61,319 nt of DNA from an uncultured Pseudomonadales bacterium. GTDB taxonomy: Bacteria > Patescibacteriota > Microgenomatia > UBA1400 > PJMF01. The notes below the pieces were generated by a model, which was not told the origin of the DNA, ran no database searches, and was given only the letters and a program-made list of their open reading frames with translations. The stretch lies in NCBI GenBank assembly GCA_964494905.1, contig CAZBTU010000003.1, forward strand, positions 1-61,319. The letters run 5' to 3'. The translations under genes were made by a program, and so were the position numbers. Each line of letters starts with the position of its first letter. Positions within the stretch are counted from its first letter, which is position 1. Shown here piece by piece: positions 1 through 54,420 of the stretch.

Positions 1-18
1 TAAGTCTTAAGAATATAA

Positions 19-57
19 GCAAAAAATAGTTCAAACTGAGGATTTGTGGGCTCACAA
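19..57 (+). repeat. Island interspersed repeat, copy A (short form)
   Basis: GCAAAAAATAGTTCAAACTGAG + 10-nt variable spacer + CTCACAA. Same core and orientation as the copies at 1071, 3128 and 8036. Lies just downstream of the APH gene. Confidence 0.6.
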
Positions 58-82
58 TCAATAATTTCAATCATCTCCAAAC

Positions 83-991
83 CTAATCAATTTCTATCTC
101 TGCAAGCGCGTTCGCGACATTTACAAAACTATCAAGGAAATCTGCATTGTCTTCAACTGCCCATAATGACGATAAGACTGTCTGAAATAATCCCCATAAA
201 TAAATTCTCTTAGAATTTAAATCTAATATTCGAGAAAATGTGTAAATACGATTTTTAAGAATTTCCTTAAGTTTAGGATCACTCCCAATTGCTGGAGGAT
301 TTCTAAGAAATGTAGCAACTTCATATGCTTTTTCACCAATGATTCCAGAAGGATCAATTACTATCCAACCCTTTACAGAGTCAAAAATTATATTGAACTG
401 ATGCAAATCTCCGTGTAAAAGAAACTCCTCTTCTGGATTTTGGGTCAAAAGAATATATGCATCTTGAGCTTTCTTTAAAATGTCCGCAGAAAAAAGCGTA
501 TTCATTGGTGATAATTCTTTAAGCCTAAGAAAGTCCTGATATAGTTCATCTAAACTTCTAAAATCTGAAGAAACATCAACTTTTTTCCACAATCGATCCA
601 TAAGTGATGCAGCTATAATAATTGCTTCATCTTCTTGTATCGTGGCAAGAGTTTGTGCTGGGCTTATTTTTTCTAAAAGAATAGCTGGGATAGATTCATC
701 CACTTGTAATACTTTTGGAACTGGACCATCCTTTTGCAATTTTAAATAATTAATTTCACGATAAAATTCTTGATCTGGATAACTTACTTTAAGAACTATA
801 TCGCTTCCATTCTTAGTTTTGCCTTGAGCCACATAATTGCAATAACTATTTTTGAAAGGAGCTTCAATCTCGATATGCCAGTCTTGTTGTAATTTTTCTA
901 TACTACTCGGAAGTTCTTGTAGCCATTTTTTTCCCGCCTCACCTCGTGAGAGCATAAGCTCATTTAATTGTCTTGGTATATTTATTTGCAT
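83..991 (-). CDS. Aminoglycoside O-phosphotransferase, APH(6)/streptomycin 6-kinase (StrB-like) family
   Basis: LHGDLHQFNIIF...GWIVIDPSGIIGE matches the HGDLHxxN catalytic loop and the IDP motif of APH(6) enzymes. The C-terminal half aligns by eye with StrB. The ATG at 991 (MQINIPR) lies 9 nt downstream of a TATAAT (1006-1001 on minus). The ORF-track start at 1000 is a TTG. Confidence 0.8.
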   Translation of the reverse strand: MQINIPRQLNELMLSRGEAGKKWLQELPSSIEKLQQDWHIEIEAPFKNSYCNYVAQGKTKNGSDIVLKVSYPDQEFYREINYLKLQKDGPVPKVLQVDESIPAILLEKISPAQTLATIQEDEAIIIAASLMDRLWKKVDVSSDFRSLDELYQDFLRLKELSPMNTLFSADILKKAQDAYILLTQNPEEEFLLHGDLHQFNIIFDSVKGWIVIDPSGIIGEKAYEVATFLRNPPAIGSDPKLKEILKNRIYTFSRILDLNSKRIYLWGLFQTVLSSLWAVEDNADFLDSFVNVANALAEIEID

Positions 992-1070
992 AATAATCAA
1001 ATTATACTACTAGAAAAAAACAGTAATCAGTTAATACTTTCATAATTTAATTCTATACAATATATAAGAC

Positions 1071-1127
1071 GTAGCCTCTCGAGGTCTGCAAGAAATGGTT
1101 CAAACTGAGTTGCCTTAGGGTCACAGT
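1071..1127 (+). repeat. Island interspersed repeat, copy B (long form)
   Basis: GTAGCCTCTCGAGGTCTGCAAGAAATGGTTCAAACTGAG + 11-nt spacer + GGGTCACAGT. The left arm GTAGCCTCTCGAGGTCTGCAA is identical to copy D at 8036. Confidence 0.65.
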
Positions 1128-1146
1128 AAAAATAGACATCTTTGGC

Positions 1147-1932
1147 ATGGGAATAAAAGACGAAACAAATTATAAAAGAATTTTAGAAGCTTTACTGATA
1201 GTTGTACTTTTTGTCCTGTTTTTTACATATTTCTGTGCTTTGGACATTTTAAGAAATTCAGCGTCCGAACTGTTAAGGGACGTTCGCCCTGAATTAATTG
1301 GTGCTATCATTACATATTTTTTGATTGAAAAAGCACTTTCTTTTTATAGAGCAAGAGAAGAACAAAGGCGCCTTAAGTTAACTCATGATATGTTAAAATC
1401 AGTACTAAATACGTACATAGATCTTGCAGCATCACTATATAAATCGACCCTAAAAGAAAAAATTCAAATACCAAATTTAGATACATTTTTTAATTCTAAT
1501 TTTGTTGGTTCCATAAACAAGATTGATTTGTCCTCAGAATCTTCAATGTTAGAAATGGATAATCTTGCTTTTACTTCTTATAAGGGAATTCTACTACACA
1601 ATGATTTAGAAAATTTTATCAACATCCACTACTACGAGATAAGCAGTGAGATGTTAGATGCTCTGCTAGAATTTAAAGGTAAACTAATAGCTCTCGCTGG
1701 CTTAAAACAACTCTTTCAAACTCGTAAGCGCGCATTAAAAATTAACATCCCAGATACAACTAATTTGGGGGATCTTTTTGAGATATCGATGAATGAGTTT
1801 AAAAATATAGTTAAATTATTTAACAAAGCTAATCCAAAAAATCCAATTAAACTAAATACTAAAATTTTAGAAGATGGTGTTTGGAATGAAAAGCATGCTC
1901 CAAAATTCGGAAGTGGTATAAAAATGGATTAA
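1147..1932 (+). CDS. Hypothetical membrane protein (two N-terminal TM helices, soluble C-terminal domain)
   Basis: Long ORF in the AT-rich island. Hydrophobic stretches ILEALLIVVLFVLFFTYFCAL and PELIGAIITYFLI. No recognisable motif. Confidence 0.55.
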   Translation: MGIKDETNYKRILEALLIVVLFVLFFTYFCALDILRNSASELLRDVRPELIGAIITYFLIEKALSFYRAREEQRRLKLTHDMLKSVLNTYIDLAASLYKSTLKEKIQIPNLDTFFNSNFVGSINKIDLSSESSMLEMDNLAFTSYKGILLHNDLENFINIHYYEISSEMLDALLEFKGKLIALAGLKQLFQTRKRALKINIPDTTNLGDLFEISMNEFKNIVKLFNKANPKNPIKLNTKILEDGVWNEKHAPKFGSGIKMD

Positions 1933-1955
1933 GCTGTTGAGACCTAGGGTCACAA
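1933..1955 (+). repeat. Partial copy of the island repeat (right arm only)
   Basis: GCTGTTGAGACCTAGGGTCACAA resembles ACTGAGTTGCCTTAGGGTCACAG of copy B. Sits immediately after the stop of ORF 1147-1932. Confidence 0.4.
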
Positions 1956-1982
1956 ATTATTCATTTTTAATACTAAAAACTG

Positions 1983-2026
1983 TGGCGCGTATTTTGGCGC
2001 GTATGTGGCGCGAACTGTGATATACT
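1983..2026 (+). promoter_or_regulatory. Fic1 promoter/operator: three phased TGGCGCG direct repeats plus an extended -10
   Basis: TGGCGCG at 1983-1989, 1995-2001 and 2006-2012 (spacing 12 and 11 bp). TGaTATACT at 2018-2026. The ATG at 2034 is only 7 nt after the -10, so the transcript is near-leaderless. Confidence 0.55.
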
Positions 2027-2033
2027 CATTACT

Positions 2034-3086
2034 ATGTATACTCCAAAATTTACTATTACCTCTGAAATAACAAATCAAATAGCTGAGATTGAAGGTATTC
2101 GCACCATTGTAGATCAAAGCAATATTCTACCAGAGAAAGAAATAGCCCTACGATACAGAGCAACTGTAGAAGCAATACATAGCTCAACTACAATTGAAGG
2201 CAATCAACTAAACAAAAAACAAGTTGAGGCTGTACTTGCTGGAAAAGCTGTGGCACAAACTGAGTATGCCATTACTGAAGTAAAAAATTACAAAAATGCT
2301 CTTGACTGGCTACAAATTAGAAAACAAAACTCTAAACAAATCTCAATTGAAGATATCCTAAAAATACACGAGCTAACTATGGATGGACTTTTACCAAAAG
2401 AAAAAACTGGTCATTTGCGTCCGGGAGAAGTATATATTGTTGACATTATTAATAATGATGAGCAAGTTCGCTACCATGGTCCAAAATCTGAATTACTTCC
2501 TGATTTACTTTCAGATCTGTGTAAATGGCTGGAATTCGAAGCCAGTAAACTGCATCCAGTATTAGCTGCAAGCATCCTTCATTATGAATTTGTTTCAATA
2601 CATCCATTTAGCGATGGAAATGGTAGAGTTACTCGATTATTAACAATGCTCTACTTATCTCTGCGTCAATACGATTTTAGAGGAGTACTTGTCCCAGAGA
2701 TTTATTATCTTGATCATCGTATGCAATATTACAATGCTTTAAACCAAGAAAATGAATATAGTAAGCAAAGAAATGCAAATCTTACTCCATGGATTGAATT
2801 TTTCGTCAAAGGATTTTTAACTACAACCAAACACTTAAAAACAGAAATTACTATTGCTCAAGCAGTTAATCCCAAAAATGTAACCATTCGTCTGTCGCAA
2901 GAAGAAATACAGTTGCTCGACTTTGTGAAACAAATGGGTTCAATTTCGTTGGAAGAAACTTTAGAAATTCTACAAATTCCTAGAAGAACTGCTCAAAGAA
3001 GGCTGAGTGAATTAGTTGATAAAGGACTATTACGATTAAACAGCAGTGGTAAAAATACTAATTATATAGCGCATGTTCACAAGTAA
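2034..3086 (+). CDS. Fic family protein, class II (intramolecular inhibitory helix), with C-terminal winged-HTH-like domain
   Basis: Fic core motif HPFSDGNGRVTR (HxFx[D/E]GNGRxxR). Upstream inhibitory motif STTIEGN ([S/T]xxxE[G/N]). The C-terminal LSQEEIQLLDFVKQMGSISLEETLEILQIPRRTAQRRLSELVDKGLL looks like a wHTH. Confidence 0.88.
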   Translation: MYTPKFTITSEITNQIAEIEGIRTIVDQSNILPEKEIALRYRATVEAIHSSTTIEGNQLNKKQVEAVLAGKAVAQTEYAITEVKNYKNALDWLQIRKQNSKQISIEDILKIHELTMDGLLPKEKTGHLRPGEVYIVDIINNDEQVRYHGPKSELLPDLLSDLCKWLEFEASKLHPVLAASILHYEFVSIHPFSDGNGRVTRLLTMLYLSLRQYDFRGVLVPEIYYLDHRMQYYNALNQENEYSKQRNANLTPWIEFFVKGFLTTTKHLKTEITIAQAVNPKNVTIRLSQEEIQLLDFVKQMGSISLEETLEILQIPRRTAQRRLSELVDKGLLRLNSSGKNTNYIAHVHK

Positions 3087-3127
3087 AGCCAAGCTCTTTT
3101 AGTCGAGCATATGTCTTGAGGATACTG

Positions 3128-3168
3128 GCGAAAAATAGTTCCAACTGAGGGTGTGTGAACTCACAGCG
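3128..3168 (+). repeat. Island interspersed repeat, copy C
   Basis: GCGAAAAATAGTTCCAACTGAG + GGTGTGTGAA spacer + CTCACAGC. A degenerate left arm (ATGTCTTGAGGATACTG) lies at 3111-3127. Located in the convergent gap between Fic1 and the 1148-aa gene. Confidence 0.6.
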
Positions 3169-3224
3169 TTTTTCTCTAGAGTTTTTCACACCCTAAGTGC
3201 AACATTGAACTATTCTTACTTTTT

Positions 3225-3261
3225 TGGCACAATTTTTGGCGCGATTATGGCACAATATAGT
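3225..3261 (+). promoter_or_regulatory. Orphan Fic1-type operator/promoter-like element with no downstream ORF
   Basis: TGGCACA (3225-3231), TGGCGCG (3237-3243) and TGGCACA (3248-3254), with the same 12/11-bp phasing as the Fic1 operator. A TATAGT follows at 3256-3261. It points into the 3' end of the convergent 1148-aa gene. Confidence 0.4.
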
Positions 3262-3347
3262 TTGTATTTACTCAAAATGTAACTTTATAAAGTATTTGAA
3301 GATACAGTAATTTTGCTTTATACTGTGGCAAGACCGACAGGGAATAG

Positions 3348-6300
3348 CTAGTTCAATGCTTCAATATATTTATCAATTTGTTCCTTCATGAATGATGTGG
3401 CATTTGATTGATATGATTTTAATAAGTTAATTATTTCACTCGGTGAAATTATCTGTTGCCATTGATCACTTTTTGATTTATAACTTTCAATAAATTCATA
3501 AAAAAATGTAGGATTTTGAGTTACCTCTCTTATGAATATTCTGGCATCTCTCATTTCTCCTGAGTTAAGTAAGATCGGATTGGAAAGAATAAGCTCTTTG
3601 CGATATGTTGGTAAAATCAAAAAAAGATATTCAAATTGTTTTTCCGAAGCAATTGAAGCAAAGAAATTATTAGGTAGACCTGTTGAATTCACTATATCAA
3701 AAACATAGTGTTCACCATGTAGATCTTTTATCCCACTCAATACATTTAGGTAATCCTTAATCATAAAAGTTTCACCTGAATTCATAAAAGCATCTATTTG
3801 ATCAAAATTACTAACAATATTGGCTAGTGTTGTATAACCATAATCATCATAAATACCACGAAATATTTTATTGATTTGATCTTGATTAAGCTGCCCAAAG
3901 TATTCCTTACAAAGGGTAAAGTATGGGTCAGACTCATCTGCAAGATAAAGTTTTTGCAAGAATTCAGTTCGAAAAAGAGTAAACAGAATCAATTGCTTTG
4001 CCATGGGATCGATGACCATGAACTTATCCAAATATTCTGTATCAAGTTTATCTAAATCTCTGATCGCATCAGGGCTTACTGGCACAGTAAGATCAGAAAG
4101 GTTTGGACTAAGAAGAATAAATCGATTGAAGAGTGAACCACCCAGTTTAACATAGATAACGTTACCTGTATTGTCTTCAAATTCAACAACTTCACCGGTT
4201 ATCAATTTTTGTAGAAGTTCTCTGTATAGCACATTGTCATCAAATTCGACAACTTCGCCGGATATGAATTCCTGTGGTAATCGCGGATCAAATCCATACC
4301 AATTTGCATTTGTGTCAACCGCGATAAATCGTAATTGCGAACCTATTTCTCCACTTTTTGTTTCCGGTTTCGGTGCACCAGGTAGATCATCAATTATTTC
4401 ATCAAATACTGCAAGGTTACTCATTAAATAGTCCAATTGATCTCTGAGTTTTTTACTCCCATAAGGATCTCCTGAATATCCTTGATATATTCCAATATAA
4501 TCCTGAAGCAAGCCGCCAATACTCGCGGACGTAGGTGATACACCTGCTATAGCAAGCAGATTCATAATATGATACATCCCACCAGCTAGGTTAGCCGGAT
4601 CAAAGTTTTTCATTAGAAAATCTTTAGAAGGTATATCCCAGTATTTAGATTCTGGGAGCAGTAACGCTAGATCAGCCGCAGTAAATCCTTTTGAAAAAGG
4701 GTCTTCGATCATTGTCTGAGCCAGAAATCCGGAATCAGAATTATTTAATGAACCTATAGGAGTACCTATAAATGGGTTGTTTCTCGTAATCAGTTTTAAA
4801 GCGATAGTTACATCCCACATTGAGGAGTAGAGATCACCGTCATTTTTAACAAGCGCAAAGGCTAATATATCGGAGATAGGAACTTGGTTTTGTGTATGTT
4901 CATATTGTTGAAAAATAAAATTTTGATAATCAGAAAAATATAAAGTAATTTGTTCAATATTTAGCTGTTTAACTGTTGGGTGAAGCGAGTTATACAAAAC
5001 ACAAACGTCGTGGAAATTAGAAAAATTGCTACTGGATAGATGATAAACTTGTTGTAGTGATTCCGATGTTATTGACAAGAATAGAGGATCACTATTATTA
5101 TTTTTTGATAAAGTATAATCCGTGACAACATCATCTAATCCGACGTAGTCAGGATGAACTTGCCAGAAAACAGGCGAGGGGTCGTGATTATATTTTCTCG
5201 CCATTGTTTCATATGTTGAAAATGCATTCGTTAATAACACATCAATTGTTTGATAATTCAGGTTTTCTTTTTCTAATAATTCATATAGTGCTGTCTGCTT
5301 TTCTTCTGGGAATAATTCGATTTGTTCTCGTAACTGATCATCAAAATCTCTTTCTTTTTCCGTAAGGACAGTGATCGCAAACTCGAATAACTTTTTTGCA
5401 GACTCGGGATCACTTAAATCAGCATTTATCATCTGAATAAATTGTGGGTCTGTGAATATATCAATCAGTGCTTCACTAGGTAGTTTAGAGATAAGATTCA
5501 AGGTCTGATGTTCAAACAGTTCTAAAAATTGTGCTCCCATCTCTGTAGTAGTAAGCCACATTAGACCTTTTTGAATAATCATTTGTTCCTGATTATGGAA
5601 AAAATGTTCTACCGATTCACTCGCAGCCGAAACTATATCAGCTGCTGTCGGACCAAAAACTGAAAGTAAATATAATATATTCACTAAGATTAAATCTTTT
5701 TTTAAATCGGCAGCTCTATCACTATTTGTTGCAACTTGTTCAATTCTTGTACGGATTCTGTTTATCTCTCTTGGTATTTTTTGACCCTGTTGTTCCATGC
5801 AGACACACCACTGGACTATTTTTTGTGTCGGCGTAAGACTATCATCACTAAGCACCAAACTTGCAATTTTAGGCTTCAGTTCTTCAAGAGTTTTCAGGGA
5901 TCGTAAACGACTGACGTTGTCGCCATAGCTGTATGCACCTGATCTCTGATCTTCAAGCAATTGGCCATAAACAACAGCGTGTGAATGTTCTCGAGAACCC
6001 TGTGTAGTCCGTAATGTTTGAGTCAGTACACCCATGTGTTTAAGAGTTTTCTCAATTTCACTTTTACCTTTTTCTTTAAGTGTGTTTTCTAAACCAAAGA
6101 AATCATTTATTCTACCAAAAAATTTGGTTCTTCCAATACTTTCAGCAGCTAGTCCATCAAGCGCCATTGCTTTATTGAGGTTCCATTGTTTCAAAAAATC
6201 ATGATTAGCATCTTTTAAAAAAGAAGCTGCTGTATTCCACCAGGTTTTTGACTCAACTGCAAGAAAATCATAATAACTGATTTTATCGGTAAAACCATCT

Positions 6301-6794
6301 TCGCCTGATTCAAGTTTAAGAGTTAGGAAAACAAATTGCCGTAGTTTTTCAATTGAAGTTTGCTCTAGATCTATTTTCCCCAAACAATCTATAATTTGTT
6401 CTGCGTTTGTGAGCTGTTTTTCTACTAATGGACAAAGATCCGCAAATACTTCAATCATACTCATTCGCACATTTCGTTCTTTCGAATTGTTTGGCTGAAG
6501 AGAGGTGACAGAATCAAATGAATAGGGTTTGATGTATTTTAGAAAACGTTCTACCTTAACTGACAACGTTGTGCTAGGTTCTACAAGGATTTCATTTACC
6601 TTATCATCAAAATCATTTGAGCTTATCGTCGATGCATGAACTTTCTTAATGAAATCAGCTTCTTCTTTCAGTAAATGCAGTATTTTCTTTGAAGTTATTG
6701 CATTTATTTCTTCTAATAAACGCGTCTCAGTCAAGAGCTTCTTTCCAATTTCAAAATTCAAAGTATCAATATTTTCAACAGGTTTTTCGTTCAA
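3348..6794 (-). CDS. Large orphan protein (1148 aa), function unknown
   Basis: Uninterrupted 3.4-kb ORF in AT-rich DNA. Apparent TTG start; the next in-frame Met is about 105 codons in. No catalytic motif recognised. Internal duplicated segment SGEVVEFDDN / TGEVVEFEDN (29-nt DNA repeat at 4171-4199 and 4234-4262). Co-directional with the Fic gene 137 nt upstream. Confidence 0.75.
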   Translation of the reverse strand: MNEKPVENIDTLNFEIGKKLLTETRLLEEINAITSKKILHLLKEEADFIKKVHASTISSNDFDDKVNEILVEPSTTLSVKVERFLKYIKPYSFDSVTSLQPNNSKERNVRMSMIEVFADLCPLVEKQLTNAEQIIDCLGKIDLEQTSIEKLRQFVFLTLKLESGEDGFTDKISYYDFLAVESKTWWNTAASFLKDANHDFLKQWNLNKAMALDGLAAESIGRTKFFGRINDFFGLENTLKEKGKSEIEKTLKHMGVLTQTLRTTQGSREHSHAVVYGQLLEDQRSGAYSYGDNVSRLRSLKTLEELKPKIASLVLSDDSLTPTQKIVQWCVCMEQQGQKIPREINRIRTRIEQVATNSDRAADLKKDLILVNILYLLSVFGPTAADIVSAASESVEHFFHNQEQMIIQKGLMWLTTTEMGAQFLELFEHQTLNLISKLPSEALIDIFTDPQFIQMINADLSDPESAKKLFEFAITVLTEKERDFDDQLREQIELFPEEKQTALYELLEKENLNYQTIDVLLTNAFSTYETMARKYNHDPSPVFWQVHPDYVGLDDVVTDYTLSKNNNSDPLFLSITSESLQQVYHLSSSNFSNFHDVCVLYNSLHPTVKQLNIEQITLYFSDYQNFIFQQYEHTQNQVPISDILAFALVKNDGDLYSSMWDVTIALKLITRNNPFIGTPIGSLNNSDSGFLAQTMIEDPFSKGFTAADLALLLPESKYWDIPSKDFLMKNFDPANLAGGMYHIMNLLAIAGVSPTSASIGGLLQDYIGIYQGYSGDPYGSKKLRDQLDYLMSNLAVFDEIIDDLPGAPKPETKSGEIGSQLRFIAVDTNANWYGFDPRLPQEFISGEVVEFDDNVLYRELLQKLITGEVVEFEDNTGNVIYVKLGGSLFNRFILLSPNLSDLTVPVSPDAIRDLDKLDTEYLDKFMVIDPMAKQLILFTLFRTEFLQKLYLADESDPYFTLCKEYFGQLNQDQINKIFRGIYDDYGYTTLANIVSNFDQIDAFMNSGETFMIKDYLNVLSGIKDLHGEHYVFDIVNSTGLPNNFFASIASEKQFEYLFLILPTYRKELILSNPILLNSGEMRDARIFIREVTQNPTFFYEFIESYKSKSDQWQQIISPSEIINLLKSYQSNATSFMKEQIDKYIEALN

Positions 6795-6931
6795 AACATG
6801 TACTTTTTTTTTAGCAAAATTTCTGGCATGTATTTACTTTAACACGATTTTGTTGATTTTGCACAAAAATGTGAGTTCAATACCCTATGAGAATTTGTTG
6901 AAAAAATACCTGTCATTCATTAAATAAAATC

Positions 6932-7966
6932 TTACTTATCACTCAACACATAATAAGTAGACCGACCCTTACCCTCGCGTTTAATTAAACCTAATTCAAT
7001 CAATCTTTGAAAATCGAGTGTTCTGGTAGCCTTTGCCCTATCAGTCAACTTTGAATATGCTCTATCTGTAATAAAACCGTTTTGCTTTATATAATTAATT
7101 AATTTTAAATGATATGTCTCAATTTTAGTTTCAGGGGAATAACCAGTTTGCGGAATTATCTTTTTCACTCTGTGCAACTCATCAATGATACCTTCTGTAA
7201 AATACTCAAGCCAACTAGTGAAATCAATTGTTTCTCTCAATTCATTATAATCACCACATTCACCAACAGTCTGAAAATATTTTGTTACATTTTTATTGTA
7301 ATAGTTCTCAAAACTAAACAGATTAAATGTATTAAGTCCCATTTTTGCCAACAGAACTTTAGTCATTAATCTTGTGGTTCTACCATTCCCATCAATAAAA
7401 GGGTGGATAATAACCATTTGTTTATGAAAAATGCCTGCCAAAATCAAAGAATCCACAATATTTTTATTTCGGATAACAAATGTGGCAAGTTCTGTCATTA
7501 ATTTATTAACTTGATCATGATCAGGAGGTAAAAATACAACCTTGCCTGTTCTAGGATCATTAACAACTACAGGCTTTTTTCTCAGTCTACCTGACTCAAA
7601 ATCAGGTAACAAGCCGCCAATGACTTTTTTATGAACTGCTAAAATTAGATTTAAAGAAATAGATAAATCATCTTTTTTACTAAGATCATTCAAGTATTCA
7701 AGTGCCTCAATATAGTTAAGCACTTCTCGTTCACTATCACGAATGTATTCTGGTCTATTCTTTAATACTTTTTTAACTTCAGTTAAAGGTAATGGATTAC
7801 CCTCAATACTCGTAGATGCAAAGGCAGAAACTTCTCTTGCCTTTCTTTCAAAATCAATCAATACAACTTTGGGAAATCTTTGATTATTGAGTTCTTCGAC
7901 TAATAAAGCTATATACTTTATATTTGAAAGCAGCTTATTTGTAATCGTATACTTTGGCGTAAACAT
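6932..7966 (-). CDS. Fic family protein, class II, with C-terminal wHTH-like domain (paralog of 2034-3086)
   Basis: Fic motif HPFIDGNGRTTR. Inhibitory motif STSIEGN. N-terminus MFTPKYTITNKLL parallels MYTPKFTITSEIT of Fic1. C-terminal LKLINYIKQNGFITDRAYSKLTDRAKATRTLDFQRLIELGLI is HTH-like. Confidence 0.88.
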   Translation of the reverse strand: MFTPKYTITNKLLSNIKYIALLVEELNNQRFPKVVLIDFERKAREVSAFASTSIEGNPLPLTEVKKVLKNRPEYIRDSEREVLNYIEALEYLNDLSKKDDLSISLNLILAVHKKVIGGLLPDFESGRLRKKPVVVNDPRTGKVVFLPPDHDQVNKLMTELATFVIRNKNIVDSLILAGIFHKQMVIIHPFIDGNGRTTRLMTKVLLAKMGLNTFNLFSFENYYNKNVTKYFQTVGECGDYNELRETIDFTSWLEYFTEGIIDELHRVKKIIPQTGYSPETKIETYHLKLINYIKQNGFITDRAYSKLTDRAKATRTLDFQRLIELGLIKREGKGRSTYYVLSDK

Positions 7967-7968
7967 AT

Positions 7969-8004
7969 TAGTCTAATAATAGTCGATTATTAGTCGATTG
8001 TCAA
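7969..8004 (-). promoter_or_regulatory. Fic2 promoter/operator: TTGACA-17-TATTAT overlaid by three phased TAGTC(G/T)A repeats
   Basis: On the minus strand, TTGACA (8004-7999), a 17-nt spacer, then TATTAT (7981-7976). The ATG at 7966 is 9 nt after the -10. On the plus strand, TAGTCTA 7969-7975, TAGTCGA 7980-7986 and TAGTCGA 7991-7997 (11-bp phasing). Confidence 0.6.
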
Positions 8005-8035
8005 TACTCTGATTTTATGCTAAGTATAGTAAGAT

Positions 8036-8089
8036 GTAGCCTCTCGAGGTCTGCAAAAAATAGTTCCAACTGAGGGCGCGTGGGGTCAC
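8036..8089 (+). repeat. Island interspersed repeat, copy D (long form), at the right edge of the AT-rich island
   Basis: GTAGCCTCTCGAGGTCTGCAAAAAATAGTTCCAACTGAG + GGCGCGTGG spacer + GGTCAC. Coincides with the switch from about one-third GC to higher-GC DNA. Confidence 0.65.
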
Positions 8090-8156
8090 TCTATTGGAGT
8101 TTGTGAGAGTTGATTAGTCTTGCTACTTCTAATAGCAACCAATTTCATCAACTCGA

Positions 8157-8771
8157 TCAGAAGCAGTATGACAACATAATTTCCCTTGCTGTTAGTTTGT
8201 AAAAATTGAAAGCAGCTAGCATTTCGTTTGTGGCATTCTGACTCAGTCGATTTTCACTTCCAGCGATAAACTCAAGACGATCGTCTAACACTTTCGAGTT
8301 AGTTAATGACGATATCCGCCTTGTGACAGACCAAACAGTATCAATGAATGGCGGTAGCTTCATGCCTCTTCTAATCTCAACAAATTCTTCTTCCTCCACT
8401 TGTCTCCCCAACAAAGATGAGATGTATAGCTGCTCCACCCCAAAATCAGTATCGGCATCAAATTTAGTATTAAACACTTTTCGAATAGTAGGAATGATCT
8501 CCTCACTGACAGCTGTTAGAATTTCCTCGACACGTTCGGCTGTGGATACTTGCTTCCCAGTAACACGATCTGTATTGATGGGAAAAAGTGTCGGGACAGC
8601 GTCCTCAGTCAATTCAATGGGCGAGAGGGGCGGCTGCTTAATTGTTGAAAAAACATCGTCGATATCAGGTTGCTGCAAATGTTGTGCCTCAAATTCAAAT
8701 AGGTCCTTTTGCAATCGTGTTCTGTTTATATGTGAAGTGACTGATGCTAGTAACTCACGAGCCAGATGCAA
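8157..8771 (-). CDS. Hypothetical protein (204 aa)
   Basis: ORF co-directional with and 66 nt downstream of the PD-(D/E)xK-like gene. No motif recognised. Confidence 0.55.
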   Translation of the reverse strand: MHLARELLASVTSHINRTRLQKDLFEFEAQHLQQPDIDDVFSTIKQPPLSPIELTEDAVPTLFPINTDRVTGKQVSTAERVEEILTAVSEEIIPTIRKVFNTKFDADTDFGVEQLYISSLLGRQVEEEEFVEIRRGMKLPPFIDTVWSVTRRISSLTNSKVLDDRLEFIAGSENRLSQNATNEMLAAFNFYKLTAREIMLSYCF

Positions 8772-8837
8772 CTGTTCACTAAACTTCTTTTTTTGATCAG
8801 TTGTAGAACTGGGAGGATGTTCAATCTCAGCAATTTC

Positions 8838-9305
8838 TCAAGCGAATGATGCATAAATAAGCTTGTTTCTATAGATCCCGAATGATTCAGCACTTGCAAT
8901 CTTATCAACCTCAAAAGAAGAGTCTACATCAGGTTTCCTAATTTTAACTTCAACTATTGCGGCAACTTCGTATACATCTCCGACGTCTTTTACTACAATA
9001 AAATCAGGCGGATATATTTTTGCATTACTGAGTGAATGCGCCAGCAACTGATTATCAGGAACAGGCGACACATTGCGGATATCTTTCATCGCATGCAGGA
9101 TGAATTGCCCAAGCATCTCAGACTTAGTTCCGGCCCGAGTAAGTATGCCACGATGCTCGAGCATCATTTGTGCTAAATACTCACCAGCCAGACCGACGGC
9201 ATTTTCTAAAGTTTTAGGCCTTTCGAATCGATCAACGACAACTAAATCTGGCTGTAACGATGGACTTATATGCTTAATCTCATCAATCTGGTGTTCCTGA
9301 TTCAT
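8838..9305 (-). CDS. PD-(D/E)xK nuclease-fold-like small protein
   Basis: PPDFIVVKDVGDVYEVAAIVEVKIRK gives PD ... E-x-K in the usual order and spacing. Start refined to the ATG at 9305 (MNQEHQ), 6 nt after TGtTATACT (9320-9312, minus). The longer track ORF (to 9443) would run through that promoter. Confidence 0.45.
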   Translation of the reverse strand: MNQEHQIDEIKHISPSLQPDLVVVDRFERPKTLENAVGLAGEYLAQMMLEHRGILTRAGTKSEMLGQFILHAMKDIRNVSPVPDNQLLAHSLSNAKIYPPDFIVVKDVGDVYEVAAIVEVKIRKPDVDSSFEVDKIASAESFGIYRNKLIYASFA

Positions 9306-9365
9306 TTTGTAAGTATAACAAATATTCATATGATACTTGCATTGATGATATGATATAACCAACCT
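9306..9365. promoter_or_regulatory. Divergent near-leaderless promoter pair
   Basis: Minus strand: TGtTATACT at 9320-9312, 6 nt before the ATG at 9305. Plus strand: TGaTATAAC at 9351-9359, 6 nt before the ATG at 9366. Confidence 0.45.
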
Positions 9366-9863
9366 ATGAGAGAAAGTTTGTCTAGTTACTTCAAACAGCA
9401 TTTGAAGAAAGAAAATAAGATCGTTCAACATGAAATTCGGCAAATTTCAGATGAACAAGAACAGGTAATGATCGAACATATAGCCAAGATTTGCCCCCCC
9501 GATTTCCCAATCGGCAAAGGACTAAGAGGTGGCTTCGACCTTAAGATGGTTGCTCAGTATCAACCTGAGCAATGCGTCACAATCCTTGGTAAAGCTTTTG
9601 TAATTCCAAAAGCCGGAAAAGCGTCTCTACAAATTGAACAACAAGACACTCATAGAACAGATGGGAGAAAAGAGTACATCTTTGAAGTGACAGATCGCTC
9701 TGTCTTTGTTGCAAGCTCTGGTAGTGCTACAGAACTTGTAGTCATCACGGAGGTGCCTGAGGGCTTACCCTCTGATCCTTTTGCCAGAACCTATGTGTTT
9801 ATTACCAATGATGCATTGCGAACCATTCTGGAATCACACCAGAGCATCTCTTCAGTCATCTAA
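9366..9863 (+). CDS. Hypothetical protein (165 aa) sharing an AKI(C/Y)PPDF motif with the divergent neighbour
   Basis: IEHIAKICPPDF compared with LSNAKIYPPDF in 8838-9305. Nothing else recognisable. Confidence 0.55.
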   Translation: MRESLSSYFKQHLKKENKIVQHEIRQISDEQEQVMIEHIAKICPPDFPIGKGLRGGFDLKMVAQYQPEQCVTILGKAFVIPKAGKASLQIEQQDTHRTDGRKEYIFEVTDRSVFVASSGSATELVVITEVPEGLPSDPFARTYVFITNDALRTILESHQSISSVI

Positions 9864-9917
9864 CCTACCCTGATCCAAGCAGTTACTCTTGCAGAGTAAA
9901 TATGCTATAAGAAATGC

Positions 9918-12380
9918 ATGCATGAATTGACTAGAGTTAATGAAATTAACAAACCGGCAGAGTTACCACCAAAAATCTCCCAGGTAACAGAGAAACCCAT
10001 ACCTCAAGAACTTCAACCATACAAAATTAAATCCGTCACAGAAGTTGGCCTAGAAACCGGCACAACTAGTGTTGTTTGCCAACTCGACAACAAACATGCG
10101 TACAATGCCCAGAGCTTGGCTGCTATTCGAGATCAGTTGGACCAGAATCGAGTTGCGGTAATGTTAGATAACAACTTCAAGGACAAAACCAGTGCTAGCT
10201 GGGTAAAGATCTTCAAGACCGTCAATGGCATAAAAACACTGGTAGCGCGATTTGACCCTCAGAGCAATGTTCTCCATGTTGATCACCACCTCACGACAGC
10301 AGAAATTGGTGAGACACCTCTCAACCAAGAGCTCAACCCAGAATTGCCAGCGTCAACGACACCACTGGTTGTTGCTTTTTTTCGCGGGCTGAGTGAAGGG
10401 ACACTCTTTACCGAAGATGAAAACTTCCCTGGTTGCATTGAATCTCTCAACAACACTTGGGATGCTCACCAATTCATGGTGTTTGTAGATCATTTTGATC
10501 CAGACTCTACAGAGTCATCAATGGCAGTGCTGAAGGCTAGCAGGGACAATGTTAATCACCAGTACTTTGATGAATTGGCAGCAACCACCCTGGACGCCGA
10601 CCACCGCGGGACGTATAGAACTAAAGATGGAGCCTCAAATGCTCGCGAAAAACTGGTCAAGGTACTCTCAGAACTCAGTATCCTGAGTGTACCAAGAACG
10701 ATCAAAGCACTTCAGGTTCTTGAAAATATCACCGACCACAATCAGCTTGCTGAAGCCCTGATAGCCAACAACATGCCAGACGCTGCTCAGTTATATCTGA
10801 ACTTTGAAAAAATATTGCAGTCCACCGAAGCAGTTGCTGAGTCTATGGCGGCACACTACGATGGTCATGGGAACGTGGTCTATAACGTGTTGGCGGGTGA
10901 TACAGAGCTAGATATGGCATACTTGGCGAGTGCTCTCCAGGAGAAATATGGCAAAGAGATCGGTCCAGACGGCATTGAAGTTTGTTTGATAGTCAAAGAT
11001 TATGGCCAGGTTGATGCTAGTAATTTTCCTGATGTTCACGAGTACGGCGTCTGGGTAAGAACCCTGCATGAAGCAGTGGATCTCAATAAATCTGGAGCAT
11101 TGCTTGAACTACTTGGCATCTATGGCCGGAGCACAGCCCGAGGGAACCGAAATGCAATTTCACACGTTTCACAACATGGAGTGACCTTTACTATTACGGG
11201 TACGGCTGATCTACTTGCCGACCTTAATGCAGGGAGCAGGTGGCGCTCTAAAAACGCATGGGGACTGATTAAAACCCTTGAAATGATCTTCGACCGTGAC
11301 CCAGCTTCACACACTATAGAACAATATATTGGATCTCGACCCGATAGTGTGCGCAGGTCCAGAACAATACCGGGGACCAACCAAGAACGAGGCGTTGCGT
11401 TGGACACGATCAGTACGGGTGAGCGAAGTGGTGAACAACGCGTCATCAAGTACCTCATTTATCCACCGGGTGAATCCCCTAATCAGGAATTCATATCAGA
11501 AGTACATACTGCCGGAGTTGCTGCTGCACTCCTTTGGCGTGACGGGCGACAGTTGGTGCTCATCCCAGAAACAATCGGACTTCACATCAAACCAGGGTTC
11601 GTCGGAGCAGAGTTTGAACGTGTTCAGATGCTTAATGATCCCAAACTAAATGAGATGGGTATGCCAATCGTGGAAGACGGGCAACATCAGTTTGCTCAGG
11701 TAAGTGAGCACTCAGAAGCAATGCTAGCCCACTTAGATGACATGAGAAATGTTCCCATAGCTATTTTAGATGCAGGGAAAGTAAGGGTGGCAAGTGCAGC
11801 TGAGTACAAATCAGATGTAACAAACTTACTTGCTGATTTACCAATAGGTTTACTACCTCTGCAGCAGATAGAGATGATACAACAACTAGAGTTTCACTTT
11901 GATCAGAATGAGAGGGTCTTAGTAAATGGCCGCACAAAACCTGATAACATGTTTGTAAAAGTGGACCGAATTGGGCAAACTGACTGGCAGTCAATCAAGC
12001 AAGGACATAGATATGAAGATCAAGTGTCCCTCCTCAGTAGTTTTCTGTTGATGAACCCTGCAGAGATAAACCGATACGCCAGGGGGATGGATTTCAAGAA
12101 CCCTGATGTACAATTTCTATTTATCAGTCGGGCACTCTTTGCTTTGCAGTACAACATAGATAAAATAAAAAGACTTGAAGAAGAGAACAATTATAGTGAA
12201 GTGGAAATCACAAAACTGAAGGTGCGTATTCACCTTGAGATTGTCACATGGGCACTGTCTGATCAAAAAGATTTAAGCAGGTTGCAACAATTAAGTGGAG
12301 AATTACGCAAAAAGCTGCAGGAACATAGACCAAGCACTGCACATCAAGCGAATCAGATGTTCGGTACTTCTGTTGGTTGA
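9918..12380 (+). CDS. Large hypothetical protein (820 aa) with a degenerate DHH/DHHA1-like N-terminal region and a C-terminal coiled coil
   Basis: LHVDHHL (nt 10281-10289), followed by ELPASTTPLVVAFF, resembles DHH motif III and its following helix. VWVRTLHEAVDLNKSGALLELLGIYGRSTARGNRNAIS resembles the DHHA1 ...GGGGHxNAAG segment, but the GGGH is replaced. Resemblance is by eye only. Confidence 0.6.
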   Translation: MHELTRVNEINKPAELPPKISQVTEKPIPQELQPYKIKSVTEVGLETGTTSVVCQLDNKHAYNAQSLAAIRDQLDQNRVAVMLDNNFKDKTSASWVKIFKTVNGIKTLVARFDPQSNVLHVDHHLTTAEIGETPLNQELNPELPASTTPLVVAFFRGLSEGTLFTEDENFPGCIESLNNTWDAHQFMVFVDHFDPDSTESSMAVLKASRDNVNHQYFDELAATTLDADHRGTYRTKDGASNAREKLVKVLSELSILSVPRTIKALQVLENITDHNQLAEALIANNMPDAAQLYLNFEKILQSTEAVAESMAAHYDGHGNVVYNVLAGDTELDMAYLASALQEKYGKEIGPDGIEVCLIVKDYGQVDASNFPDVHEYGVWVRTLHEAVDLNKSGALLELLGIYGRSTARGNRNAISHVSQHGVTFTITGTADLLADLNAGSRWRSKNAWGLIKTLEMIFDRDPASHTIEQYIGSRPDSVRRSRTIPGTNQERGVALDTISTGERSGEQRVIKYLIYPPGESPNQEFISEVHTAGVAAALLWRDGRQLVLIPETIGLHIKPGFVGAEFERVQMLNDPKLNEMGMPIVEDGQHQFAQVSEHSEAMLAHLDDMRNVPIAILDAGKVRVASAAEYKSDVTNLLADLPIGLLPLQQIEMIQQLEFHFDQNERVLVNGRTKPDNMFVKVDRIGQTDWQSIKQGHRYEDQVSLLSSFLLMNPAEINRYARGMDFKNPDVQFLFISRALFALQYNIDKIKRLEEENNYSEVEITKLKVRIHLEIVTWALSDQKDLSRLQQLSGELRKKLQEHRPSTAHQANQMFGTSVG

Positions 12381-12609
12381 TCTGGGTGAGCTTTTGTTGA
12401 CAAATTGCACTTCTTAATCTTTCTCCAAACTAAATAATAGCCTGCAGCAAGAATAATGAACAATCAAACACAAAGCGGTTGTACAAATTGACCTGCCAAT
12501 AATCACTGTTGTTGAACTAATGGTCTCGATCTGAATACTGTGATACTCTAGTTCTTCCGGAAAATAAAAATTACTCTGATTAAACATCTAAGGATTGCTG
12601 GAAAAACAC

Positions 12610-13782
12610 ATGAATTCAATACCAGCCAGCTATCTCAAAACACTGCCAATCTTTCCAAGGACACTCATTAAATATCAACTTGCTACTAACATTTCAATAT
12701 CTCAACTAGTGAACTTAACATCTGATGGAATCGACAGACAAAAATTGGAAAACTGTTTAGATCAAACTGAGCTTGAGTTCATTAAGAATTATCTTAAAGA
12801 AACCAAATCTCATGAGTATCTCTTTGACCCAGGTGTAAGTCGCTTGATTGCCAAGAACCGACTTTTGTTTCACCTCGAGCCAAAGAAACAAAACAAAGAG
12901 GGTACAAGAAAAAAACTAGCTCACCCTCAAACAATCGTATTAGGTTATCCGAAATGCGCAACAACATGGTTTTACACTTTAATCCGCCAGGTTACATTGT
13001 TTGATGTACCGCCAAAAGAAATCGAGTTTTTTGGATCATGGAGATACAGTAAGGGTGAGTCATGGTATCAAAACCACTTCTCTTCGAAAAAACCATCAAT
13101 TGATGTGAGTGTCGGTTCAGTCAGACATTCTGAAATCTGGGATCGCATCAAATCTTATGAAGTTAAACATAAAAACAAGGTCAAAAAGCTCATCTTTGTC
13201 AGACGCCCATCAGAGAGAGCTTTGTCGTTCATTAGGCACAGAAAAGCAAAAGGAGAAGGATACTACAACTTCCCAAGCTACCTAAAAAGTGGATATGTTA
13301 AGTCAATGTTTATTAACACTTCAGATTACAAAACTGACCTAGAAAAGCTCACATCTGTCTTTCAAACTCAAGATTTTTTTATTGTCTTTCAGGAGGACAT
13401 CATTTCAGACCCAAAAGCAACATTCGCCGCTATTATTGCCTTCATGCTTGGTAATAGTGCGAACACTCAGAAAATTTCGAGTACGGTGCGAGCACTCGAT
13501 TTTGCAAGAATTGAAAATCAGAGCACTCAAATCAGAATGTTCCCTTTACTTAAGTTTGCGTATGAACAAGAATATTGGTGGAAAAGTAAGCATTTCCCAC
13601 AGCTTGTATATATTGGTTACGGTATCAGACGAATAGCGGAGCTACTATGCTACACGAATGAAACTGCACAAAGAACAGAGTATAAAAACTTTATCCAAAA
13701 CCATCCTAGAATCATACAGCTGGACCGCATGTATGATCAACTAAAAACATGGCTTGATGGCAATGGCATCGCACATTCGTAA
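12610..13782 (+). CDS. Sulfotransferase-domain protein (PAPS-dependent) with an N-terminal extension of about 105 aa
   Basis: VLGYPKCATTWF matches the 5'-PSB loop (PKxGTTW). FVRRPSERALSFIRH matches the 3'-PB motif (RxPxxRxxS). The track start at 12595 is a TTG; the ATG at 12610 is used here. Confidence 0.7.
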   Translation: MNSIPASYLKTLPIFPRTLIKYQLATNISISQLVNLTSDGIDRQKLENCLDQTELEFIKNYLKETKSHEYLFDPGVSRLIAKNRLLFHLEPKKQNKEGTRKKLAHPQTIVLGYPKCATTWFYTLIRQVTLFDVPPKEIEFFGSWRYSKGESWYQNHFSSKKPSIDVSVGSVRHSEIWDRIKSYEVKHKNKVKKLIFVRRPSERALSFIRHRKAKGEGYYNFPSYLKSGYVKSMFINTSDYKTDLEKLTSVFQTQDFFIVFQEDIISDPKATFAAIIAFMLGNSANTQKISSTVRALDFARIENQSTQIRMFPLLKFAYEQEYWWKSKHFPQLVYIGYGIRRIAELLCYTNETAQRTEYKNFIQNHPRIIQLDRMYDQLKTWLDGNGIAHS

Positions 13783-15406
13783 AGGTATGAACAGTCCTGC
13801 AATCGTTAGACTCAACAAGCAGCAAATTCAAGATGTTGTCAATCTTGCCACGGGTGTATACGCACCACTCACTGGTTTTTTAAAACAAGCTGACTATACA
13901 AGTGTTTTGAATGAGATGAGACTCGCAAACGGAAGTGTATGGACAATTCCAGTTGTATTACACATAGATCATGCAACTGCAGAAGCAATTAATGGGCAAA
14001 ATCAGGTATTACTCTGCGACAAACTTAACAGAGAAATTGGATACATTCTTGATCCAATGATCTTCCCATTCGACCATGCTACGTATGCGGAAGCAGTATT
14101 CGGAACTCTTGATACTCAACATCCTGGTGTCAAAGATGCCGCGCTTGCTGAAAAGTACCTAATTGGTGGAGATGTAGTGCTTACTAGGCAACCTGATGCA
14201 CCTTTCGCAGCATACAATCACACACCGGAACAAACAAAGCAACTATTTAAGCAGAAAGGCTGGCACTCTATAGTTGGATTTCAAACGCGGAATGTGCCAC
14301 ACCGAGGACACGAATTTTTACAAAAAACCGCGCTGAAAGTAGCCGATGGACTATTGATTCAACCAGTTGTCGGAAAGAAAAAAATTGCTGACTTTAAAGA
14401 TGAGTACATTGTGGCCACGTACAATGCATTAATTAAGAAGCGCTACCCTCAAGATAAAGTTTTGTTATCTACGCTATCTTTAAAGATGCACTATGCTGGT
14501 CCACGTGAAGCAGTCTTTCATGCACTGATCCGACGAAACTTTGGGTGTACATACTTCGTTGTTGGTCGCGATCATGCCGGTGTAGGAAATTACTACCCAC
14601 CACTAGCAGCTCAATTAATATTTGATCAATTTACTCGAGAGGAAATGGGAATCGGTATTCTTAAATATGAAGAAGTTGTTTATAATACTACAACAAAAAA
14701 ACATGACTTCATCTCAAATGTACCTACCGCTGCGAGGCAACATTTTAGCGGAACCAAGTTGAGGCAATATGTTTCACAGCAAATTATTGCCCCTGCATAC
14801 CTAGTTCGACCCGAGGTTGCAGAAATATTATGCAGTAGTCCAACTGCGTTAGTAGAACACAAACACAACAGCACTATGACTAAGCCAAGTTTTACAGTCT
14901 GGTTTACCGGTTTGTCTGCTTCGGGAAAAAGCACAATTGCAGACTCAGTGTACCAAGTGCTGGCTGAAAGGCAGTTATCAGTCGAGAGACTAGATGGCGA
15001 TGTGGTAAGACAAAGTCTGACTAAAGATCTGGGTTTTTCTCGAGAAGACAGAATCGAAAACATCAAAAGAATTGGATTCGTTGCAAGCCTACTTAATAAA
15101 AATGGTATTGGAGTTATTGCATCCTTTATTACACCGTATGAGGAGCAAAGAAAACATTTACGAAAAAAACTTGATAACTATATTGAAATTTTTATTAGCA
15201 CCCCACTCGAAACCTGTGAAGAGCGTGATCCAAAAGGCTTGTACAAAAAGGCTAGGACAGGCGAGATTTCACAATTCACAGGTATCTCAGATCCCTATGA
15301 AACTCCAAAAAATCCTGACCTAACCATAGATGCGCTTGATCCTGATCCGACTACATACGTCAACACAGTAATCGATTACTTAAACAAAAAAGGTTTTTTG
15401 GAATAA
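13754..15406 (+). CDS. Bifunctional sulfate adenylyltransferase (ATP sulfurylase) / adenylylsulfate kinase (PAPS synthase)
   Basis: N-terminal domain has GFQTRNVPHRGHEFL and VVGRDHAGVG (ATP sulfurylase signatures). C-terminal domain from about nt 14880 has WFTGLSASGKSTIA (APS kinase P-loop) and ISDPYE. Overlaps the sulfotransferase gene by 29 nt. An alternative ATG lies at 13787. Confidence 0.88.
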   Translation: MMAMASHIRKGMNSPAIVRLNKQQIQDVVNLATGVYAPLTGFLKQADYTSVLNEMRLANGSVWTIPVVLHIDHATAEAINGQNQVLLCDKLNREIGYILDPMIFPFDHATYAEAVFGTLDTQHPGVKDAALAEKYLIGGDVVLTRQPDAPFAAYNHTPEQTKQLFKQKGWHSIVGFQTRNVPHRGHEFLQKTALKVADGLLIQPVVGKKKIADFKDEYIVATYNALIKKRYPQDKVLLSTLSLKMHYAGPREAVFHALIRRNFGCTYFVVGRDHAGVGNYYPPLAAQLIFDQFTREEMGIGILKYEEVVYNTTTKKHDFISNVPTAARQHFSGTKLRQYVSQQIIAPAYLVRPEVAEILCSSPTALVEHKHNSTMTKPSFTVWFTGLSASGKSTIADSVYQVLAERQLSVERLDGDVVRQSLTKDLGFSREDRIENIKRIGFVASLLNKNGIGVIASFITPYEEQRKHLRKKLDNYIEIFISTPLETCEERDPKGLYKKARTGEISQFTGISDPYETPKNPDLTIDALDPDPTTYVNTVIDYLNKKGFLE

Positions 15407-42691: not shown

Positions 42692-42700
42692 CGCAATTTG

Positions 42701-42774
42701 TGAGTCCGCCGGGACTCGAACCCGGGACGCACAGCTTAAAAGGCTGTCGCTCTAACCGACTGAGCTACGGACCC
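42701..42774 (-). tRNA. tRNA-Lys (anticodon UUU)
   Basis: The reverse complement folds as a cloverleaf: GGGTCCG-TA-GCTC-AGTCGGTTA-GAGC-G-ACAGC-CTTTTAA-GCTGT-GCGTC-CCGGG-TTCGAGT-CCCGG-CGGACTC-A. 74 nt, CCA not encoded. Confidence 0.93.
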
Positions 42775-52107: not shown

Positions 52108-52140
52108 CCCCCCACCAACAAGTGGGGGGTTTTTGGTTTT
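52108..52140 (+). terminator. Rho-independent terminator after greA
   Basis: CCCCCCAC-caacaa-GTGGGGGG followed by TTTTTGGTTTT. Confidence 0.85.
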
Positions 52141-52195
52141 GGTAGAAGAAAAGAAAAAAGGTTACAATACTCATCAAGTCCGAAGAGGAGATCAT

Positions 52196-54244: not shown

Positions 54245-54387
54245 TGCAACAACCGGAATCGATACAACAAGACACATCAAACACACTAAACCAAGAGGTA
54301 TTTGGCAAGATATCACAAGCATACGTTGATCATGTGCTTACACGAAATGTAACACCAGATGAAATGCCAGAAACATCATCTGAATAG
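54241..54387 (+). CDS. Small ORF (48 aa) coupled to lysS by an ATGA overlap
   Basis: Translated by hand: MMQQPESIQQDTSNTLNQEVFGKISQAYVDHVLTRNVTPDEMPETSSE. Below the ORF-track length cutoff. No homology is inferable. Confidence 0.3.
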   Translation: MMQQPESIQQDTSNTLNQEVFGKISQAYVDHVLTRNVTPDEMPETSSE

Positions 54388-54420
54388 ATTGAGCTATTAG
54401 TAGAAAGGGAAGGAAAAAAG

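Follow-up and report, generated by a model that had tools for sequence, protein, structure and literature searches.

A probable site-specific cassette array, bounded by copies of a nuclease leader, at the end of a Candidatus Woesebacteria contig

The DNA analysed here, which we call the window, is an entire metagenome contig of 61,319 nt (CAZBTU010000003.1), and the question it raises is how the AT-rich stretch at its left end, positions 1-8090, was put together from an APH(6)-like kinase gene, a gene for a 261-aa orphan protein, two Fic genes (Fic1 and Fic2) and a gene for a very rare 1148-aa protein. A first-pass annotation had described this stretch as a purely accessory island with one repeat, here named R, at its gene junctions, and had read it as the product of stepwise, site-directed accretion of cassettes. 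We find the island to be genuine: it looks foreign and is made up of single-gene cassettes in an array, with R copies joining them, and it is probably part of a site-specific cassette array that is bounded by R and served by a putative recombinase.

R occurs five times in the window, always on the + strand, always at a gene junction and nowhere else, and scans of the window with the core pattern and with nhmmer gave no copy right of 8.1 kb. The 17-nt core, allowing up to 3 mismatches, matched 4 times compared with 0.41 expected, a number reached by 0 of 100 shuffles. Three sequence types of R can be told apart, and related loci in other genomes are cited below by our own handles (L058 and so on). 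Copy A (1-57; nhmmer E 5e-12 to 8e-11) is a type-2 copy truncated where the contig begins. Copy B (1065-1125, with a conserved flank from about 1057; E 1.9e-22) is a full type-1 copy with 92-95% identity to R copies of L058, L102 and L108, while copy C (~1918-1954; E 8e-4, model positions 29-79 only) consists of the right half only, from the central TAAAAAT onwards, with 83-86% identity to R copies of L140. Copy E (3087/3110-3165; E 3e-10) is of type 2 and has a left extension, AGCCAAGCTCTTTTAGTCGAGCATA, that is also present in L147 and in the distal R of L121. Finally, copy D (8030-8090), placed by comparison with L147 and by the G+C step, is a hybrid site at the island end, formed of a type-1 left half (8030-8054), the interval AAAAAAT (8055-8061) and a GC-richer type-2 right half (8062-8090). 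These five co-oriented copies bear out the repeat as first annotated, and so does the one junction that had been listed as an exception, the gap between Fic2 and the 1148-aa gene, where the best local alignment to R scores 24, a score reached by 5 of 300 shuffles, and would represent a decayed R remnant at most.

The compositional switch that had been placed at about 8.09 kb was evident in G+C bins, in codon usage and in tetranucleotide deviation. G+C is 33.5% over 1-8090 compared with 44.1% for the remaining window, with 1-kb bins at 0.31-0.37 throughout 1-8000 and at 0.38-0.48 further right, and the rise is located between 7601-8000 (0.30) and 8001-8400 (0.40), i.e. at R copy D. Likewise, the five island genes have 0.21-0.26 G+C at third codon positions (GC3) and the genes of the flank 0.32-0.45, and in tetranucleotide composition the island lies at an L1 distance of 0.41 from the core, compared with 0.08-0.13 for 8-kb pieces of the core, a three- to fivefold difference. 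All five island proteins form singleton clusters found on this contig alone, while the adjoining core protein is found in four assemblies, and exact-protein look-ups with the window proteins gave no match. Purely accessory is, in our judgement, a fair description of the island content, and we infer that the island is low in G+C because it was recently imported from Patescibacteria of lower G+C content.

Outside the window, about 35 more full-length R copies were recovered when public genomes and metagenomes were scanned by pattern; a genome scan with the 17-mer returned mostly chance matches, the real ones being only L031, L058, L080, L102 and L108. Most of the outside copies abut the ribosome-binding site (RBS) and ATG of a gene for a 146-151 aa PLD-family protein with a single HKD motif, and in L058, L102, L108, L121/L140, L122-L133, L136 and L142 the AAGGAGG-N-ATG of this PF13091 gene follows directly after R. 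On the nuclease strand, which is the minus strand of the window, R holds a short open reading frame (ORF), C-D-P-x-x-x-Q-F-E-P-F-L-A-x-L-E-x-L-R-L-I-Y, that overlaps the nuclease RBS and whose stop codon overlaps the nuclease start codon. Variation in R is codon-like, with an entropy by codon position of 0.44, 0.30 and 0.82, a synonymous share of differing codons of 34% compared with 7-11% in the other same-strand frames, and conserved stops in all three opposite-strand frames. Types 1 and 3 lead one nuclease subfamily. Type 2, to which window copies A and E and the D right half belong, corresponds to the leader of another subfamily, seen in L144 and L145, where the type-2 leader stands before the nuclease gene and conservation begins exactly at the right end of R. 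Judged by its sequence, R is a copy of the leader that immediately precedes a conserved gene for a 146-aa HKD/PLD nuclease. Furthermore, the half of R nearest the cassette junction (..CAGTTTGAACCATTTTTA..) is nearly invariant at every position, which suggests a DNA-level constraint added to the coding constraint. Read on the window minus strand (e.g. 1030-1125), the left half of R has a clear coding signature with synonymous changes at third positions, although some copies have no start codon.

Other identities for R were tried and rejected. It is not the 3' end of a lost long gene, as a profile search of 5.8e9 proteins with the R ORF matched only ORFs of 33-66 aa with unrelated N-termini, and it is not a promoter, as no good sigma-70-like site lies within it and the cassettes own their promoters. 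Comparison with tRNA and Rfam families gave no match for R, and the only tRNA found in the window was tRNA-Lys (42,700-42,774). Co-oriented repeats at the junctions, single-gene cassettes of ~1 kb and accessory or defensive cargo are also what a chromosomal integron, or a cluster of attC sites lacking an integrase (CALIN), would present. However, R has no hairpin potential, with z-scores of -0.98 to +0.69 for single-copy DNA folds of four copies on both strands, and RNAalifold over 19 diverse copies gave a consensus structure of 0 pairs, so that R is not an integron attC site. It also has no R''/R' (RYYYAAC/GTTRRRY) cores and is a coding-derived double-strand sequence, while the cassettes lie on both strands with their own promoters and no IntI-like gene was found in the window or within the inspected surroundings of relatives' arrays. 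Integron or CALIN identity is refuted on the defining features tested (attC folding, IntI, and promoterless co-oriented cassettes), and we give it next to no probability.

In relatives the end of the array is formed by the nuclease gene, a gene for a 70-95 aa protein and an XRE regulator, and adjoins a type IV secretion gene cluster. The fullest order is that of L121/L140 (contigs of 1.19 Mb and 212 kb), which reads R (type 2)-HIT-R-Fic-R-314aa-R-nuclease-small protein-XRE, followed beyond XRE by a Qat system and then by Peptidase_M23, VirB4-like, TraC-like, PrgI and pilin genes. L142 has the same frame with a CBASS cyclase replacing Qat, and L144 and L145 have it with other inserts and no R array; elsewhere we found nuclease-R-Fic2 homologue-R (L058), nuclease-R-hydrolase-R (L108) and, without the nuclease, R-OMPdecase-R-APH (L143). 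The HxK(x)4D motif of the nuclease is invariant and its nearest solved relative by profile is MitoPLD/Zucchini. The family comprises 4502 proteins at E<1e-5, mostly from very short contigs, as expected for genes that lie beside repeats.

Two further observations concern these loci. Between the XRE gene and Peptidase_M23 there is a second variable slot (L140 11028-15932, L142 11149-13040, L144 11059-14365, L145 10922-14953), which holds, depending on the genome, QatABCD, a CBASS cyclase, an S8 protease with an AAA ATPase, or a 1343-aa protein, and which resembles a hotspot for defence genes in which no repeats can be seen. In addition, L031, L058, L080 and L102 are labelled as uncultured Pseudomonadales bacterium and L108 as Patescibacteria, and all have the same nuclease/R locus; the Pseudomonadales labels look doubtful, as the locus is shared with contigs carrying secretion genes of Gram-positive or candidate phyla radiation (CPR) type.

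The window starts inside R copy A, and contigs broken inside R in the same way are L031, L129, L130 and L138. The earlier statement that the island runs off the left edge holds in that the array is truncated there, but the edge is an assembly break at a repeat, with the contig beginning in copy A. The nuclease platform presumably lies to the left of the contig start, the window holding the nuclease-distal part of an array of a type that occurs in Patescibacteria.

Evidence that R is a place of recombination comes first from the recurrence of homologous cassettes between R copies in other, unrelated settings. Window Fic2 is 82% identical in amino acids and 77% in nucleotides to an R-flanked cassette of L058, which is a clean R-gene-R unit, and cassettes of the Fic1 type, with the leader of window Fic1, are present in L140, L126 and L134. 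In three arrays whose R copies are of three different types, this leader joins ..TCACA at the same base. Moreover, R comes with the cassettes: the L126 array has a platform R of type 3 and a distal R that is a type-1 variant, and in L108 the internal R was not copied from the platform R, so that simple target-site duplication, as in CRISPR-like repeat copying, was rejected.

The second line of evidence is the position of junctions at the edge of R and of breakpoints at its centre. Comparison of L126 with L125/L132 showed an identical nuclease and R, with cassettes that differ from the next base on, while comparison of L131 with L125/L127/L132 showed a common R right half and following cassette, with divergence from the A-tract leftward. 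Half-sites end in the same place, as copy C of the window keeps the right half from TAAAAAT and L134 (5792-5819) keeps the left half ending GCTAA. Strain polymorphism at copy D was seen by comparison with L147, an independent NCBI assembly of a conspecific strain that is 99.85% identical to window 8052-12572. Its R at the island border is of pure type 2 where window D has a type-1 left half, and the informative differences confine the type switch to 8055-8061 (AAAAAAT). Since it is the left half of the border R that differs, the two strains diverge exactly at the R centre, and because the right half of D is of the GC-richer type 2 and identical in L147, it looks like the host's own site and not an imported one. 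The best explanation of copy D is that it is the product of exchange between a cassette-borne type-1 R and a resident type-2 R.

Such exchanges could also have come about without a dedicated enzyme. R would then be kept as the leader of the nuclease operon, and natural transformation followed by RecA-type or microhomology-mediated R x R recombination, by Campbell-type circle insertion and loop-out between direct repeats, would move the cassettes. In keeping with this, no recombinase lies near the arrays inspected, R copies are often near-identical within one array (L140, L058), which would permit homologous exchange or gene conversion, and for L131 and L125, whose right R half and next cassette are identical, a homologous crossover anywhere further right would look alike. 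However, four independent breakpoints fall inside the same ~9 nt at the R centre, R ends on the right at precisely the same base in >30 copies representing three diverged types, and at the D junction the identity runs with resident type 2 are no longer than ~7 bases if the incoming site was pure type 1. We regard this alternative as unlikely.

A further possibility is that the joint at D is an assembly chimera, in which the array of a low-G+C organism was joined to a Woesebacteria chromosome through a shared repeat and the G+C step is artefactual. The window is a metagenome contig starting in a repeat, the island G+C matches that of other array-bearing genomes, and L147, the only other assembly of the border, breaks at the same repeat with a different left half. 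Nevertheless, the joint would need to fall within ~7-21 nt common to the sites, which is shorter than final-contig k-mers, type-2 copies also lie within the island (A and E), and the host owns a resident R here, with its GC-richer right half identical in L147, so that integration is to be expected. A chimera is thus very unlikely in our estimate.

A site-specific array would work as follows. Each unit is one gene, or a few, with its own promoter, bounded by co-oriented double-strand R copies of 60-80 bp, and cassettes would be gained, lost and swapped by R x R recombination with strand exchange in the central 7-nt A-tract (TAAAAAT). A travelling cassette would have its cargo between a right half of R at the start and a left half at the end, and in a circular form the two halves would close into one R. 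Circular intermediates of this kind presumably exist, and the exchange would be catalysed by a dedicated, as yet putative, site-specific recombinase acting in trans. Stepwise site-directed accretion, as first proposed, is supported by the recurring R-bounded cassettes, the border difference in L147 and the central breakpoints, with the refinement that the repeat is not attC-like but derived from the PLD nuclease leader, with that gene, beyond the left edge, as the probable anchor of the array.

The statement that no integrase or transposase lies in the window was confirmed by a scan of 40 window ORFs, none of which has such a domain. Among the relatives, a large serine recombinase gene lies 10 kb away in one contig only. 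A phage or plasmid vehicle was rejected, as neither full-length R nor the nuclease was found in IMG/VR viral contigs, where the seed matches were chance matches in unrelated ORFs. One candidate for the enzyme would be the HKD nuclease module itself (leader, 70-95 aa partner and XRE), as the phosphohistidine nicking-joining recombinase of an integron-like platform in CPR bacteria, acting at its own leader. HKD enzymes form covalent DNA-enzyme intermediates, and this property, together with the constant position of the gene beside the first R, its invariant HxK(x)4D and the lack of any other recombinase nearby, makes the proposal plausible, although we think it quite improbable. If true, the enzyme would be of a class unrelated to tyrosine, serine, DDE or HUH enzymes.

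Several observations weigh against a site-specific array built on the nuclease platform. The platform was not seen in the window host, R copies occur without the nuclease in L143 and the nuclease without an array in L144/L145, and recombinase genes are absent within 10 kb of the arrays or loci in L140, L142, L143, L144 and L145. As read from the sequence, no dyad-symmetric arms flank the A-tract of R, unlike the usual cores of tyrosine recombinases. The variation in the left half of R is like that of coding DNA, but this half is never in an intact gene, for which the model offers no explanation, and the island-core joint in this strain is known from one metagenomic contig.

The cargo of the window array agrees with the gene list first given, with caveats on the identity of the kinase, the SoFic profile matches and the rarity of the 1148-aa family. 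Cassette 1 (83-1000, minus strand, ATG at 991) encodes a kinase whose family is supported by Pfam APH_6_hur (E 3.5e-31), while its earlier naming as APH(6) is not, since the NCBIfam APH_6 score of 104.9 bits is under the equivalog cut-off of 325, and we call it an APH(6)-like kinase; its GC3 is 0.22 and it forms a singleton 90% cluster. Cassette 2 (1147-1932, + strand) encodes the 261-aa orphan, which has N-terminal hydrophobic segments as read from the sequence, no match in Pfam, PADLOC or NCBIfam, and last four codons that come from R-derived sequence. The 1148-aa protein (3348-6794, minus strand) likewise has no family match in these three collections, and a protein cluster search of 1.84e9 cluster representatives gave 22 matches including itself (21 non-self) at E<1e-3, the best non-self match having 35% identity.

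Cassette 3 (1983-3086, + strand, gene 2034-3086) carries Fic1 (PADLOC SoFic E 5.6e-54, Pfam Fic E 9e-19). Upstream of the gene, at 1983-2012, three tandem TGGCGCG(N4-5) repeats stand just before the -10 element, TATACT, and the same triple leader precedes Fic homologues in L140 and L134; the repeats are probably an operator for the C-terminal winged-helix domain of the Fic1-type protein itself. At 3166-3265 (+ strand) lies a truncated Fic1-type cassette that has the leader and operator repeats without the gene, recognised by its similarity to L140 and L126, where the leader after R is 75-79% identical and starts at the same first base after ..TCACA. This leader runs into the region of the 1148-aa gene and looks like a decayed or overwritten cassette. 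Fic2 with its own promoter occupies 6932-8012 (minus strand, gene 6932-7966; PADLOC SoFic E 1.6e-46). The promoter, TTGACA-17-TATTAT (8004->7976), agrees with the consensus at 11 of 12 positions and is the best promoter-like site of the island, and an inverted repeat, TAGTCTAATAAT..ATTATTAGTCGA, overlaps it (7968-8004, minus strand), an arrangement that is repeated in L058 and suggests autoregulation. Both Fic1 and Fic2 have the N-terminal inhibitory motif S-x-x-x-E-G and HPFxDGNGR, and both match the PADLOC SoFic anti-phage profile over nearly their full length, with NCBIfam equivalog scores below cut-off. By these features they qualify as members of SoFic, with a predicted anti-phage role.

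The host is, by protein clustering, Candidatus Woesebacteria, as the 820-aa and SecA proteins of the window cluster with proteins named Candidatus Woesebacteria bacterium. Directly right of the island, at 8157-12380, the core flank holds genes for proteins of 204, about 155, 165 and 820 aa that are shared with other Woesebacteria assemblies, and the cluster of the 820-aa protein has 4 members from 4 assemblies, one of them named Candidatus Woesebacteria bacterium. In L148 and L149, more distant relatives of this flank, no R was found nearby. The core gene content includes a split transketolase, L-lactate dehydrogenase, F-type ATPase, LysRS and SecA. Three other features of the core were observed. 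A sulfotransferase gene beside a fused ATP-sulfurylase/APS-kinase gene at 12595-15406, where G+C is 0.38-0.39 at 12-14 kb, is unusual content in a CPR bacterium, and this stretch may likewise have been acquired; the lysyl-tRNA synthetase at 52133-54244 has a C-terminal extension of ~200 aa bearing an HDIG domain; and an isolated dip in core G+C (0.386) at 54001-55000 surrounds a 195-aa ORF without a family match.

The genomes of CPR bacteria (Patescibacteria) are tiny, and only a few routes by which they acquire genes have been described; full-text literature searches turned up no account of arrays like these in CPR bacteria, which is weak negative evidence. The cargo comprises SoFic-type defence genes, kinases and rare large proteins, and the array adjoins the Qat/CBASS slot in relatives, so that, if the reading as a site-specific array is true, it marks a hotspot for harvesting new defence genes of uncultured CPR bacteria. 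R, with its mapped 7-nt exchange interval, is a short, defined DNA site for finding the enzyme, and R arrays explain the fragmentation of metagenome assemblies at such loci.

Among known systems, the R array may be set beside the integron. In both, small cassettes, mostly of one gene each, alternate with co-oriented recombination sites, a fixed platform gene stands at one end with its 5' end towards the array, the cassettes appear to carry their own site and the cargo includes anti-phage genes; integron cassettes are reported in one preprint (bioRxiv 10.1101/2024.07.02.601719) to encode phage defence. In contrast to integrons, the R array has no IntI tyrosine recombinase among the window ORFs or the called genes within 10 kb of the L140, L142 and L143 arrays, and R is a conserved double-strand sequence from a leader ORF where attC acts as a folded single strand. 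The cassettes, furthermore, lie in both orientations with their own promoters (11 of 12 consensus positions for Fic2, an operator-promoter for Fic1), exchange falls at the R centre and not at a G|TT edge, and the host is a CPR bacterium. A CALIN needs two or more attC sites, and R fails the folding tests for such a site.

Tandem integrative islands, such as those targeting tRNA/tmRNA genes, the tycheposons of Prochlorococcus and those at the 5' end of dusA, offer a second comparison. Islands of this group make a duplicate of their target gene's end, and R arrays resemble them in that the repeats copy the end or leader of a target gene, successive insertions lead to tandem arrays, and hybrid att-like sites occur at the border with the core. 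They differ in having units of ~1 kb without their own integrase, no element-encoded recombinase being found in the cassettes examined, and, with respect to tRNA-targeting islands, in having the leader of a small HKD nuclease as the target, the sole tRNA of the window being at 42,700-42,774. The pdif/Xer modules of Acinetobacter plasmids are likewise small accessory modules with short sites and no recombinase of their own; they use 28-bp XerC/XerD sites in alternating orientation, on which a host enzyme acts in trans. R is longer (60-80 bp), always direct and, by inspection of alignments, without dif-like arms. Taken together, the array works like an integron yet stands outside that family, and it suggests that accessory and anti-phage genes are gathered here in a manner not yet described; if it is site-specific without an integron integrase, it would show that genes have come to be collected in integron-like fashion on another molecular basis.

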